A stretch of DNA of 64,000 nt from Candidatus Omnitrophota bacterium (lineage in GTDB: Bacteria; Omnitrophota; Omnitrophia; Omnitrophales; Aquincolibacteriaceae). A program made the position numbers and the translations under genes. The notes beneath the pieces were generated by a model. It saw nothing but the letters and a program-made list of their open reading frames with translations. It was not told where the DNA came from and did not search any database. The stretch spans positions 13,196 to 77,195 of the forward strand of contig JAKJDL010000006.1 of NCBI GenBank assembly GCA_022705945.1, given 5' to 3'. Below, piece by piece: positions 25,493 to 31,649 of this stretch (position 1 is the stretch's first letter; the number at the start of each line of letters is the position of its first letter).

Positions 25493-25621
25493 ACGGGGCG
25501 TCATTATTTAAAAGCCATCGAGACATAACCTCGGTGGCCTTCGTGTTTTCAGAACCCTTGCAATCGATGATCAATAAAAGCGTCAATACTTTCGCCCTTG
25601 GGGTTGGGGTCGGTGGGAGGA

Positions 25622-25834
25622 TTACTTATATTCTGTTTCTGCTTTGCGGATGGGGAGATGGAGGGGAATATTCAGAGCCTCGGCTACCTTGAAACAGACC
25701 TCAATCCCAGCTGCGCGACCTTCGTAGGTTCCGTGAATATCCGCCTTCTCGGCAAACTCCTCTTAGGATAGACCCAGCTTCTGTCTTTTCCGTCCTACCG
25801 TAGCTCCGAAACTGAATATTTTTAAGTCATCCAT
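25622..25834 (-). pseudogene. disrupted XRE-family HTH regulator (in-frame TAA replaces the Gln of the LGLSQEEFAEKA HTH motif)
   Basis: My translation: MDDLKIFSFGATVGRKRQKLGLS*EEFAEKADIHGTYEGRAAGIEVCFKVAEALNIPL... The stop is at 25763-25765 (CAA->TAA equivalent). Confidence 0.4.
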
Positions 25835-25836
25835 AG

Positions 25837-26964
25837 TTACTCTTTTTGTTTTTGATCTAATTCGACAAAATATTTCCCGAATACTTCCGCCAGCTTCACC
25901 GGAACGGCATTCCCGACCTGCCTTGCCTCAGAAGTAATTCCGGTACCGTAGAATTTATAGTTGTCTGGAAATGTTTGGAGCCTGGCTGCCTCGCGTATGG
26001 AAATCGCACGATTTTGAGTCGGATGAACAAACCTTCCGTTAGAAATCGAAACGCATTTACAGGTCAGTGTCGGAGACACCTTTTTCCACCACATCCGTCC
26101 ATACGTATCGCTGTGTTTTGTGGGATGTCTTAAGCGACATGGCACTCTGTCCTGCTGCGGAATATCCCTATGACTTCCGCCATTTTTAGGAGTGCCCTTT
26201 ATTCTCTTTGAATTTTCCGGTGACAGTTTGGGAACATGATGATTAAAGAATTTTGGGCTGTTCCCTCCCGATTTAATCGGTGGTAACGGCGATGGCTTGT
26301 TAAAGGCTTGCTCGACGGTCACAAAATCTATCTTCCCAGGCCCATGTGTTATTGGCGGAAACATTAGTTTTTTTACCTGTTCTTCGGAAACCTCTTTTTT
26401 TGCTATAAGTATGAAACGTTTTCTCCTTTGGGGCACCCCATAGATAGCCGCATCAATAACATCCTCACCAACGGAATAATGATTCTTTTTTAAGAAGCTT
26501 TTGAGACGCCGATATGAAGAGCATTGGGATTTTTTAAATCCGGGAACATTTTCGATGAAGAAGTAATCGGGCAAACGCTTGAATTTTTTTACGACACGAA
26601 GCATCTGGGATAACAGATCTTTACGGTCATCCTTATGGCCCTTCAAAACGTTTTTCTTATTCTGAGCGCTAAAGGGCTGGCACGGCGCGCATCCGGCTAC
26701 AACTATTTTATCTTCATTTTTCGGGGCAAGACATGCCCAGACATCCTCGCTTTTAACATCTTCGACCGACATTCCCCAAAAAGTCGCGGGGATATTTTCT
26801 TTATTATTTTCTGCATAGGTTTTCCCAAACGCTAGGTCTTTGTCGATGCCGAGACGAACATCGATCCCAACATTTCGAAACCCGCGAGTTAAACCTCCGG
26901 CTCCGCAGAAAAAATCAACCGCTATTATTTTACCTTTAGACTTTTGACTACTTTCGCTACACAT
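25837..26964 (-). CDS. dcm: DNA (cytosine-5)-methyltransferase
   Basis: 375 aa. Motif I IIAVDFFCGAGGLTRGF, motif IV GCAPCQPFS, motif VI FIENVPGF, motif VIII QRRKRFILIA. C-terminal target-recognition region. Confidence 0.9.
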   Translation of the reverse strand: MCSESSQKSKGKIIAVDFFCGAGGLTRGFRNVGIDVRLGIDKDLAFGKTYAENNKENIPATFWGMSVEDVKSEDVWACLAPKNEDKIVVAGCAPCQPFSAQNKKNVLKGHKDDRKDLLSQMLRVVKKFKRLPDYFFIENVPGFKKSQCSSYRRLKSFLKKNHYSVGEDVIDAAIYGVPQRRKRFILIAKKEVSEEQVKKLMFPPITHGPGKIDFVTVEQAFNKPSPLPPIKSGGNSPKFFNHHVPKLSPENSKRIKGTPKNGGSHRDIPQQDRVPCRLRHPTKHSDTYGRMWWKKVSPTLTCKCVSISNGRFVHPTQNRAISIREAARLQTFPDNYKFYGTGITSEARQVGNAVPVKLAEVFGKYFVELDQKQKE

Positions 26965-27362
26965 TTACCCACATCCTTCTTTATTTGAAAATCCCAGAAC
27001 CGAAACACCTTCCAACCTTGCTTCCGCAATGTTTTATTAACGAGTTTATCGCGTTCAATGTTGGCTTTAATTTTTTCGTTCCAGAATCGTTTATTAGTTT
27101 TGAACCTATGGCGACTGGTCTTGCCATACTTATAACCGTGCCAAAAGGAGCTATCACAAAAAATCGCTGTTTTGTTTTTCGAATTAACAAAATCTGGTTT
27201 TCCGAAAATCGCGCAATGTTTTCTATAAACAACCCGCTGACGCCTTAGTTCCGCTTCGAATATGCGCTCAATGATAGAGCCCTTGGATCGGATACGCGAC
27301 ATGTTATAGGAAATTTGAGCTTGGGAACGCAACATTGGCCTTTTAATCTTCCTCGGCGCCAA
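26925..27362 (-). CDS. vsr: very-short-patch repair endonuclease
   Basis: 145 aa. Conserved Vsr core SKGSIIERIFEAELRRQRVVYR ... GKPDFV ... KTAIFCDSSFWHGY ... RDKLVNKTLRKQGWKVFRFWDFQIK. 3' end overlaps the dcm start by 40 nt. Confidence 0.85.
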   Translation of the reverse strand: MAPRKIKRPMLRSQAQISYNMSRIRSKGSIIERIFEAELRRQRVVYRKHCAIFGKPDFVNSKNKTAIFCDSSFWHGYKYGKTSRHRFKTNKRFWNEKIKANIERDKLVNKTLRKQGWKVFRFWDFQIKKDVGKCVAKVVKSLKVK

Positions 27363-30221: not shown

Positions 30222-30237
30222 ATTAACTAGTGTGCTA

Positions 30238-30266
30238 TTGACGACAAGGGTATATCCGAATATACT
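30238..30266 (+). promoter_or_regulatory. near-consensus sigma70 promoter TTGACG-17-TATACT upstream of the DUF3800 gene
   Basis: ctaTTGACGacaagggtatatccgaaTATACTttcg. Followed by a hairpin TTAGGGCTTATAGCCCTAA and a T9 run in the 5' leader (30303-30343). Confidence 0.5.
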
Positions 30267-30357
30267 TTCGGTGCGTCTGGGAGAGTCGCCAAGCGTCTCA
30301 TCTTAGGGCTTATAGCCCTAATCCCAGTCGCTTTTTTTTTCACTTTATTAGGACTAA

Positions 30358-31269
30358 TTGCATATGTATCTGTGTTATATCGATGAGTCTGGAACGCCAG
30401 ACATCCCCGGCAACACCCCACATTATGTCCTCGCAGGTTTATCGATCCCAGTTGAACACTGGAAAACATGCGATAAAGAAATTGAAAAGGTTAAATCAAA
30501 ATACGACCTCGCAAATTCAGAAATTCACGTTGCCTGGATTTTAAGAAGCTATCCGGAACAGAGAAAAATCGAAAACTTTGAGAAACTCTCTTTTAATCAT
30601 CGAAGAACGCTGGTTAATTCTCTTCGTACAGCGGAGCTACTCCGATTGCAACGAGTTAAGAACGGCAAACTTTATCGTCAAACACGAAAAAATTTTAAGC
30701 AGACGGAAAGCTATATACATCTTACTCATGAAGAGCGGCGAAAGCTAATTGGCGAGATAGCTTATGTCGTATCGAAGTGGGGCTTTGCCCGTCTTTTTGC
30801 AGAGTGTATCAACAAAATTCATTTTAAGCCCTCTGCGATTTCAAAATCCATTGATGAACAAGCGTTTGAGCAAGTCGTGTCGCGCTTCGAGCATTATCTT
30901 CAAGTTACCAACCAGAAAACTCCGAACAAAGTAGGGCTATTAATTCACGACAACAATGAGACGGTAGCCAAGAAACACACGGCAATGATGAATAAATTCC
31001 ACAAAACAGGGACTCTTTGGACCAGCTTGAAACACATCATTGAAACCCCTCTTTTTGTTGATAGCGCGCTAACTGGAATGATTCAAGTCGCGGATCTGTG
31101 TAGTTACGCTTTGCGCAGATACCTTGAAAACAATGAGACGGATTTATTTGAAATGATTTTCAAACGAGCAGATCGAAAAGACGACATAGTTGTGGGAGTT
31201 CGCCATTTTTCAGACCGCAAATGTACGTGCAAGATTTGCATCGCTCACGCAAAAGCGCCTTCCAAATAA
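30358..31269 (+). CDS. DUF3800-family protein
   Basis: 303 aa. N-terminal YIDESG motif (MYLCYIDESGTPD) and C-terminal conserved QVADLCSYALRRY, as in PF12686. Confidence 0.75.
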   Translation: MHMYLCYIDESGTPDIPGNTPHYVLAGLSIPVEHWKTCDKEIEKVKSKYDLANSEIHVAWILRSYPEQRKIENFEKLSFNHRRTLVNSLRTAELLRLQRVKNGKLYRQTRKNFKQTESYIHLTHEERRKLIGEIAYVVSKWGFARLFAECINKIHFKPSAISKSIDEQAFEQVVSRFEHYLQVTNQKTPNKVGLLIHDNNETVAKKHTAMMNKFHKTGTLWTSLKHIIETPLFVDSALTGMIQVADLCSYALRRYLENNETDLFEMIFKRADRKDDIVVGVRHFSDRKCTCKICIAHAKAPSK

Positions 31270-31649
31270 TCCCTTTTTGTTTTTTGGGAAATCATGCGTT
31301 CGGACAGTTTGGGGTGACAATAAAAGTGACGATACTTTTGATGGAAAATGGTGGTTGGCGGTAAAACGCGGTTAAAGTCGACTAGCTGATCTTCGCAAAA
31401 ATCCCCCGGGTCATTCGTAGTCATATAATTTTCAAGCTCCGCTGACAACCCAAAGGCGCGGCTTCCAATCTCTCCCCTAACATCATTTTAAAAAACTATA
31501 AAAAGATTAAAAAAACAATAACAAACTAATCGATGCTATATCTTACTTCTTATTGAGTGTTGTATATGATCCGGAAGCCGGTTACAATTGTAGCGGAGTT
31601 GATGTAAACCGATAGCGTCTTGGCGGAGAAAGAGAAAGGAGGCAAACAG

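Follow-up and report, generated by a model that had tools for sequence, protein, structure and literature searches.

A probable decayed integrative island 3' of an initiator tRNA gene in an Omnitrophota genome, with a GHKL–Vsr–Dcm operon and a structured RNA–DUF3800 cassette among its cargo

Islands associated with tRNA genes are a well-known kind of element, and metV encodes initiator tRNA. The PAI-metV of uropathogenic Escherichia coli is a known island at this gene (PMC2907695). Iyer, Abhiman and Aravind (2008) described MORC/paraMORC proteins with GHKL and S5 domains that occur together with cytosine methylases and Vsr-superfamily endonucleases in mobile, restriction-modification-like operons, and put forward a model in which ATP-driven looping of the DNA connects the recognition site with the cleavage site (PMC2292703). 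Eleven structured RNAs, unrelated to one another, were found by Weinberg et al. (2017) to be associated with DUF3800 genes; several have terminators, and no functional hypothesis was given. The best described of them, the DUF3800-I motif, was reported on either side of the gene and on either strand (PMC5737381). The DUF3800 fold is RNase H-like (PMC10910872). In type III toxin-antitoxin loci, the ratio of RNA to toxin is set by a terminator (PMC3401426). In this study, an island from a Candidatus Omnitrophota bacterium was analyzed and compared with these systems. It lies at positions 25,495–31,485 of a 64-kb stretch of contig JAKJDL010000006.1 (assembly GCA_022705945.1), which is called the window here and whose coordinates are used throughout. 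The window is 100% identical to contig MWBP01000005.1 of Ca. Omnitrophica bacterium ADurb.Bin277 (GCA_002069035.1). The region is probably a horizontally acquired, decayed integrative island 3' of an initiator tRNA gene, with independent cargo modules for which mechanisms are proposed below.

The guanine-cytosine (GC) content of the island was 0.40–0.46 (from about 25,500 to about 31,500), and that of the DNA outside it was about 0.53–0.56. The tetranucleotide distance from the rest of the window reached z = 10.9–15.6 in 3-kb windows lying mostly inside the island, and all non-island windows of the 64 kb had z ≤ 2.8, the pilin cluster on the right-hand side included. The island is the sole compositional outlier of the window. 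An earlier reading of the letters alone (the sequence-only reading) had described a sharp GC drop, which was found again by sliding GC content and by the tetranucleotide check; the flanks, however, measured about 53% GC and not the roughly 58% given there. The cargo consists of three modules unrelated to each other: a GHKL–Vsr–Dcm operon, an HTH_17 gene and an RNA–DUF3800 cassette. The cargo list of the sequence-only reading (dcm, vsr, GHKL, DUF3800, an excisionase-family HTH gene and a nonsense-disrupted XRE gene) was correct. Its description of this cargo as typical of a defence island was partly apt; it does not suit the DUF3800 cassette, which elsewhere is found among housekeeping genes and without a recurrent defence neighbour (32 contexts).

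On the attL side, the island is preceded by an intact tRNA-Met(CAT) gene (25,366–25,442, + strand), which was detected by ARAGORN and matched Rfam RF00005 with 62.7 bits. It is the only tRNA gene in the 64-kb window. By direct reading, it has the traits of an initiator tRNA, namely a C1×U72 mismatch, an anticodon stem closed by three G:C pairs, and A11:U24. The gene is followed by an intrinsic terminator (25,454–25,494, +), made of a perfect 15-bp hairpin (25,454–25,486) and a T-run. The island lies directly 3' of the tRNA gene, which ends at 25,442, and the GC content falls from about 25,495. The intact initiator tRNA and terminator had thus been correctly placed immediately before the island by the earlier reading. 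Insertion at an initiator tRNA gene had also been called notable, but it is not unusual in itself, as PAI-metV shows.

For the right end, the 3' half of the tRNA was locally aligned to the whole window on both strands, with the tRNA itself masked. The best score in the window, 30, belonged to a degenerate direct copy of the tRNA 3' half at 31,441–31,485 (+), an attR-like relic at the compositional boundary. The runner-up on either strand scored 23, and the sliding-window mean was 13.5 with a standard deviation of 2.3. In the aligned part (31,441–31,470), 25 of 31 positions were identical, with one gap, and the match covered the tRNA from the anticodon loop onward (GCTGACAACCCAAAGG-CGCGGCTTCCAATC against GCTCATAACCCAAAGGTCGCCGGTTCAAATC). 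The relic is in direct orientation and within a few tens of bases of the boundary, which is the position expected of an attR relic. A degenerate copy of this kind at the far end had been claimed before, and the relaxed alignment recovered it. In addition, the 21-nt repeat CAATAAAAGYGWCRATACTTT occurred in only two copies in 64 kb, both on the + strand and one within each island end: at 25,572–25,592, about 130 nt inside the left end, and at 31,318–31,338, about 100 nt inside the right end. The search pattern was taken from the repeat pair itself, and the pair is tentatively considered a putative arm-type recombinase site. No structured RNA was indicated between the DUF3800 stop codon and the relic (31,270–31,500), where the fold was not better than that of shuffled sequence.

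For comparison with other genomes, species-representative genomes were scanned with the Wzx-like protein, which gave 34 related Omnitrophota loci. The divergent GH1–Wzx pair was kept in nearly all of them. The island genes were not found at the same locus in any of these relatives: homologues of Dcm, Vsr, the GHKL protein of 796 amino acids, HTH_17 and DUF3800 were absent within 10 kb of GH1–Wzx (0/34). The tRNA-fMet gene was near the locus in only two of the 34. In the related locus L016, 1.9 kb separates Wzx from UvrB, compared with 10.2 kb in the window, and the tRNA-fMet gene in this gap is on the opposite strand. Furthermore, 207 nt downstream of this gene, L016 (10,205–10,506, −) possesses a perfect 18-nt repeat of the tRNA 3' end, with its own terminator. 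In L014 (18,211–19,516), an IS481-family transposase abuts the tRNA 3' end. From the L016 repeat and the L014 transposase, the initiator tRNA flank appears to attract mobile DNA in this Omnitrophota lineage. The window tRNA trailer was also compared with the second (attR-side) trailer of L016; the likeness was confined to the T-run and was not used. A foreign origin of the island is indicated because its composition deviates, its cargo is absent from the 34 relatives and the Wzx–UvrB gap of L016 is short.

The second module, an HTH_17 gene (29,824–30,204, +), encodes a DNA-binding protein with profile matches to HTH_17 and TIGR01764 ("excise"). Its homologues are 70–87 amino acids long and cover only the C-terminal 56% of the open reading frame (ORF), and for this reason the true start is probably M51 at 29,974, which would give a protein of 76 amino acids. 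Two homologues, with 67% and 60% identity, directly adjoin tyrosine integrases in apparent integrative elements. The excisionase-family assignment made earlier gains further support from these closest homologues, and the gene fits an orphaned excisionase or element regulator. Two other assignments were rejected. As a component of MADS, the protein scored 49.5 bits against the NF047737 (MAD1) cut-off of 80, and no other island protein matched a MADS model. As for a conserved pair of HTH_17 and DUF3800, only one of 80 DUF3800 loci had an HTH_17-like match, and it lay about 3.5 kb off on the opposite strand.

Taken together, the signature of integration is recognized because the island is bounded by the tRNA and the relic, the 21-nt repeats lie just inside, L016 and L014 bear traces of mobile DNA, and HTH_17 homologues neighbour integrases. 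In the proposed history, an element of the tyrosine-integrase type would have entered the tRNA gene by a recombination that began at the anticodon loop. This recombination would restore a functional tRNA at the left junction and leave the displaced 3' half at the right junction, where it would since have drifted. The integrase would later have been lost, so that the island is now fixed, and the HTH_17 gene would be the orphaned excisionase or regulator of the lost element. The earlier proposal of a degraded mobile island at tRNA-fMet was largely right, on the evidence of composition, the tRNA relic and the absence of the cargo from relatives. Like PAI-metV and other tRNA-associated islands, the island adjoins a tRNA gene on its 3' side and differs sharply from the host in composition; its distal end has a direct repeat that stems from the 3' part of the tRNA (here in relic form only), and it carries an excisionase-family gene and accessory cargo absent from relatives. 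It differs from them in having no integrase, a degenerate repeat and a length of only 6 kb. Moreover, it is a mosaic of three independent modules, and the search for an empty site recovered none. Among decayed tRNA-associated islands, which are a well-known kind, it is an ordinary one.

The largest module consists of four minus-strand frames in a tight operon: the 796-amino-acid GHKL protein, Vsr, Dcm and an XRE frame. The C5 cytosine DNA methyltransferase Dcm (25,837–26,964, −) matched PF00145 with 3e-48, and its motifs FCGAGG, PCQ, ENV, QRRKR and GNAVP are intact. The Vsr-family very-short-patch endonuclease (26,925–27,335, −; gene call from the public record) matched PF03852, and TIGR00632 with 94 bits; its gene overlaps the start of dcm by 40 nt. 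The XRE/HTH_3 pseudogene (25,622–25,834, −) begins two bases past dcm and has an in-frame TAG at 25,763–25,765. Only the first 20 positions of its domain are recognizable (PF01381, 24.8 bits, profile positions 3–22 of 55). A terminator-like hairpin at the 3' end of the operon (25,514–25,538, −) matches the terminator consensus on both strands. No cognate restriction endonuclease for a type II restriction-modification system was found in the operon, where the sole nuclease is the Vsr-family one. The target specificity of Dcm could not be inferred from PDB relatives.

The first gene of the operon (27,343–29,733, −) encodes the 796-amino-acid protein, for which no sequence match was obtained in Pfam, NCBIfam, PADLOC or PDB. 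Its homologues number 440 and are of similar length; PF13589 is recorded for only a few of them. In an alignment of 99 homologues, N78, D81, D151, G153, E154, G155, G181, G186 and K277 were invariant, and E74 was conserved in at least 90%. By their sequence pattern, these residues are assigned to the boxes of a Bergerat ATP-binding fold (N, G1 and G2). The AlphaFold model had a mean predicted local distance difference test score (pLDDT) of 86 and a predicted template modelling score (pTM) of 0.80. In Foldseek, this model matched Hsp90, TRAP1, MORC3, GyrB and TopoVI-B over 440–480 columns, with E of about 1e-9 for Hsp90, MORC3, GyrB and TopoVI-B. The matches cover the N-terminal and middle domains of Hsp90 and TRAP1, and the ATPase cassette of MORC3. 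Because the matches extend over 440–480 columns, the protein is predicted from the model to be a GHKL ATPase with an S5-fold/transducer domain, of MORC/paraMORC-like type. The GHKL call of the earlier reading was therefore right, by both the Bergerat motifs and the AlphaFold matches. A separate model of residues 495–796 matched Ig-like beta-sandwiches only, followed by a helical hairpin.

The GHKL–Vsr–Dcm order was kept in the closest relatives, L001–L004, with 57–79% identity. In two of these, L001 (13,889–15,577) and L002 (5,760–7,442), a fourth gene follows Dcm and encodes a second GHKL protein (HATPase_c_3 plus Hypoth_Ymh, about 560 amino acids). The position of this gene corresponds to that of the XRE pseudogene in the window, and the module of the window may be a reduced version. 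DISARM and Druantia were considered and rejected for the operon: Dcm matched only generic C5 methylase models, and the other island proteins had no PADLOC match to either system.

For the operon, ATP-driven looping of the type proposed by Iyer et al. is adopted, by analogy, as the most likely mechanism. Dcm would mark the host DNA with 5-methylcytosine, and Vsr would repair the resulting T:G mismatches or serve as a nicking nuclease. The MORC/paraMORC-like ATPase would use ATP to clamp or loop DNA and so steer the nuclease. Together, the three proteins would form a restriction-modification-like barrier. In agreement with the described MORC/paraMORC systems, the operon combines a GHKL and S5/transducer ATPase with intact ATP motifs, a C5 methylase and a Vsr-superfamily endonuclease, and it shares with them lateral movement and location in an island. 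Several differences were also found. The 796-amino-acid protein has no Pfam HATPase_c_3 match, although a few members of its family have one, and at its C-terminus is an Ig-like and helical extension of its own, without a nuclease fold. The operon of the window contains neither a helicase gene nor a classical restriction enzyme gene, and the second GHKL–Hypoth_Ymh gene of L001 and L002 is missing from it. The protein is likened to MORC/paraMORC proteins as a kind, and is not placed in a named family (MORC or paraMORC1–5).

The third module, the RNA–DUF3800 cassette, is the part of the island most worth following up. Its RNA, located upstream of the DUF3800 gene, had not been part of the sequence-only reading. 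A sigma-70-type promoter, TTGACG-17-TATACT (30,238–30,266, +), is the best such site of the region, with 10 of 12 matches, and is placed to drive the small RNA; a TTGACA-like −35 box stands at a similar position in most related DUF3800 loci. The RNA (30,270–30,340, +) is about 72 nt long and is supported by its fold, by covariation and by a covariance model. It folds into a three-way junction that ends in U9, with −32.3 kcal/mol and z = −3.7. The consensus, GCGUCUGGnnnGAGUCGCcAAGCGUCUC-[variable hairpin]-CCAGUCGC-U-tract, was found 5' of nearly every related DUF3800 gene. Among 47 distinct sequences, 90.5% of the cells of the proposed structure were paired, compared with 37–45% when the partners were slid. 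Thirteen pairs were altered on both sides, and the observed values were reached by none of 500 shuffles. The sequence of helix P3 is variable, with free covariation. Helices P1 and P2 are near-invariant, each with a GCGUCU/AGUCGC duplex and a conserved U-U mismatch, and these twin duplexes suggest recognition by a symmetric binder.

The covariance model found one copy in the window, with 82.8 bits. Among the 80 DUF3800 loci, one copy of the RNA was found in every locus that has upstream sequence (73/73), and the other seven have no upstream sequence. On the Leptospira weilii plasmid pLiSL18, a copy without a U-tract lies 8 nt upstream of the DUF3800 gene. When two divergent instances of the RNA were searched against Rfam 15 with E up to 10, no family matched. 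The DUF3800 protein (30,364–31,269, +; 301 amino acids) matched PF12686 with 5e-19. Its invariant residues are D7-E8-S9-G10, H195-D196-N197-N198, D244 and the C-terminal cysteines C287, C289 and C292, and H295 is conserved in at least 90%. In total, 2,791 proteins matched the protein at E ≤ 1e-10, and the best 120 of these, from several phyla, were 61–90% identical. Close homologues occur in Chloroflexota, Planctomycetota, Coprothermobacterota and others, many on very short contigs. Accessory genes are not usually so well conserved between phyla, which suggests that the gene is often transferred while strongly constrained.

The cassette is an independent unit, because its homology is limited to the span from promoter to stop codon and no neighbour gene recurs. 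With the closest relative, L060, DNA homology was confined to 30,235–31,269, from the −35 box to the stop codon. Around the cassette, in 32 distinct contexts, 182 families were found among 148 neighbouring proteins; none occurred in more than two loci, and most of those listed were housekeeping families. No gene for Dcm, Vsr or GHKL was present at any of the 80 DUF3800 loci. The cassette as a resident of defence islands was accordingly rejected, since no neighbour family recurs and the listed ones are mostly housekeeping. Carriage of DUF3800 by phages was rejected too: none of 50,697 phage records matched, and among plasmids a single match was obtained.

It is possible, and is put forward tentatively, that the RNA and DUF3800 form an uncharacterised two-component system, either a new type of toxin-antitoxin or abortive-infection system or an RNA-cofactored nuclease, with an RNA family absent from Rfam. 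The promoter would drive the 72-nt RNA ending in the terminator, and DUF3800 would be expressed only by read-through. The abundant RNA would bind the RNase H-like DUF3800 protein, either as a toxin-antitoxin-like inhibitor or as a cofactor. By analogy, the first of these roles would pair a structured, non-repetitive RNA antitoxin with an RNase H-fold toxin. Like the motifs I–XI of Weinberg et al., the RNA is structured and highly conserved, is tightly linked to DUF3800, carries a Rho-independent terminator and spans several phyla. It differs in having no Rfam 15 match, in a comparison that was made through Rfam and covered DUF3800-I and DUF3800-IX. In addition, the RNA of this subfamily is always directly upstream and on the same strand, unlike DUF3800-I.

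Compared with the type III toxin-antitoxin systems ToxIN, CptIN and TenpIN (PMC3401426), the cassette has the same series of promoter, non-coding RNA, intrinsic terminator and nuclease-type gene that would be reached by read-through. It is likewise a solitary two-part cassette scattered over genomes and occasionally carried on plasmids. In contrast, the RNA of the window is a single three-way junction, and Tandem Repeats Finder found no repeat array in it; the protein is a PF12686 DUF3800 protein and not a ToxN, CptN or TenpN endoribonuclease. The likeness to type III systems is one of design, by analogy, and not of membership.

Other explanations of the region were weighed against a decayed integrative island. 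A recombination hotspot without a tRNA-integrated element is unlikely. In such a hotspot, the modules would have been gained singly, either as small insertions or through homologous recombination between them and the DNA on the flanks, and the relic would be the stump of a second, tandem tRNA-fMet. This would be in agreement with the fact that the three modules travel separately elsewhere, that the region downstream of Wzx differs in nearly every relative, that no integrase is present, and that the tRNA-fMet leader is itself tandemly duplicated, which indicates that local duplication occurs. However, the relic begins at the anticodon loop and coincides exactly with the compositional boundary, members of the HTH_17 family are associated with integrases, and L016 has a clean 18-nt att-type duplication at the corresponding tRNA. 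The anticodon loop is reportedly a classical crossover position (Williams 2002). An artefact of metagenome mis-assembly or binning, joining foreign DNA to the contig, is highly improbable. The genome is a metagenome-assembled genome (MAG), and the left junction between tRNA and island was seen in one assembly only, the others breaking at the tandem repeat upstream (two further same-species contigs from independent assemblies end inside this 63-nt repeat). Against an artefact, the right junction, from HTH_17/DUF3800 to the pilin cluster, is present in three independent assemblies with at least 99.6% identity, of which two further ones, from other samples, are the same-species contigs L006 (GCA_033812995.1) and L007 (a JGI metagenome) with 99.6–99.9% identity. 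In addition, the exact 796-amino-acid protein is on record from two contigs. Besides the single view of the left junction, several results weigh against the integrative island and the mechanisms proposed for its cargo. The relic taken alone is modestly significant: it is about 80% identical over 31 nt, and a score of at least 30 was reached in 4 of 100 Markov-shuffled 64-kb sequences, or about p = 0.04 window-wide. No integrase was found by a Pfam scan of all ORFs and of six-frame translations of the junction regions; from the two junctions and the 240 nt that precede the HTH_17 core, read in six frames, the XRE fragment alone was recovered. When the integrase of a related element was used in tblastn, only noise was obtained; GHSAPPRIYARFAP, which by eye resembles the catalytic-tyrosine motif of integrases, gained no support from this search. 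The lack of an integrase had been stated by the sequence-only reading, and no detectable remnant was seen either. That reading had also proposed a search for an empty site. No true empty-site allele was found; the same-species contigs reaching the region all carry the island or break before it, and L016 is only a distant comparison. When metagenomes were scanned for the tRNA together with its 7-nt leader, no contig and no further junction alleles were obtained. The ancestral arrangement is uncertain, with the tRNA elsewhere in most relatives and on the opposite strand in L016. As for the operon, a nuclease domain at the C-terminus of the 796-amino-acid protein was rejected, the separate model having matched Ig-like beta-sandwiches only. 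Distant relatives of this protein stand alone after a VapBC pair, beside an N6/N4 methylase or beside a GIY-YIG gene, and with neighbours so variable the restriction role is one that we infer.

The proposed roles of the two larger modules have rivals as well. Instead of a restriction-modification-like barrier, the operon could be a module for methylation and very-short-patch repair, with the GHKL protein as a MutL-like accessory that stimulates Vsr. The carrier would then gain protection from the restriction enzymes of other cells, or epigenetic regulation. This explanation is rather doubtful. It is favoured by the absence of a nuclease fold in the 796-amino-acid protein and by Vsr as the sole nuclease of the operon. 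A functional interaction of MutL and Vsr is documented (cited in PMC2292703; PMC6116569), and solitary Dcm–Vsr pairs exist (PMC12907096). However, some family members have neither methylase nor Vsr, such as those after VapBC or beside GIY-YIG, which is unexpected for a helper of Vsr, and the published study of such neighbourhoods prefers restriction-modification roles (PMC2292703). For the cassette, the RNA might be only a cis-regulatory 5' leader of DUF3800, acting as a transcription attenuator or as an autoregulatory protein-binding site, and this too is a possibility to be held tentatively. In its favour, all 73 loci have the RNA on the DUF3800 strand, and the distance from the end of its match to the start codon is usually about 20–30 nt and never more than about 95 nt. 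The Leptospira plasmid copy, which has no U-tract and stops 8 nt short of the ATG, must be in the mRNA there. On the other side, the near-invariant helices with conserved U-U mismatches suggest specific recognition beyond that of a plain terminator, and the published account of DUF3800 RNAs argues for a trans-acting partner (PMC5737381).

Some further features were observed next to the island. Immediately upstream of tRNA-fMet, a 63-nt unit is repeated in two and a fraction tandem copies (25,234–25,374, +). Each unit opens with the 6-nt pre-tRNA leader ATTCGG, followed by the first 9 nt of the tRNA (CGCGGGGTG), and folds as a long hairpin with −33 kcal/mol and z of about −4. In L016, a single copy is kept upstream of the tRNA, with a compensatory change at the hairpin tip. 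This repeat may have a role within the tRNA leader, either in processing or in regulation. Directly after the attR-like relic and 5' of the pilin operon, the 10-nt AT-rich unit TAAAAAACTA is repeated four times (31,489–31,528); the array could be a phased A-tract or a promoter-upstream element.

On the right side of the island, a pilin-like cluster of four genes (31,650–35,094, +) encodes an N_methyl prepilin, a 182-amino-acid protein, DUF7305 and DUF6973. Its composition is host-like. Like the island, the cluster does not occur between Wzx and UvrB in L016. Near Wzx in the 34 relatives, the only match found was a weak one (32% identity) to the 182-amino-acid protein, in L017, where it lies about 5 kb upstream of Wzx. 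The cluster may have been inserted at an earlier time, or it may have been relocated. Two identical 28-nt sequences in direct orientation were found at 32,785–32,812 and 33,861–33,888, with one copy within the DUF7305 gene and the other just 3' of it.

The island itself adds little to the tRNA-linked islands already known: it is a further small and decayed example, from a phylum that has been poorly sampled, and it shows the initiator tRNA flank as a hotspot of mobile DNA in Omnitrophota. Hundreds of unannotated proteins of the 796-amino-acid family can now be read as MORC/paraMORC-type GHKL and transducer ATPases. The RNA–DUF3800 cassette is compact and conserved: its DUF3800 proteins are 52–90% identical across phyla, its RNA is nearly invariant, and it occurs in many uncultured lineages and on a plasmid of cultured Leptospira. 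It offers a simple experimental handle on the role of DUF3800 genes and their partner RNAs. If the two-component reading is true, it would give a testable function for the DUF3800-associated RNAs reported in 2017.

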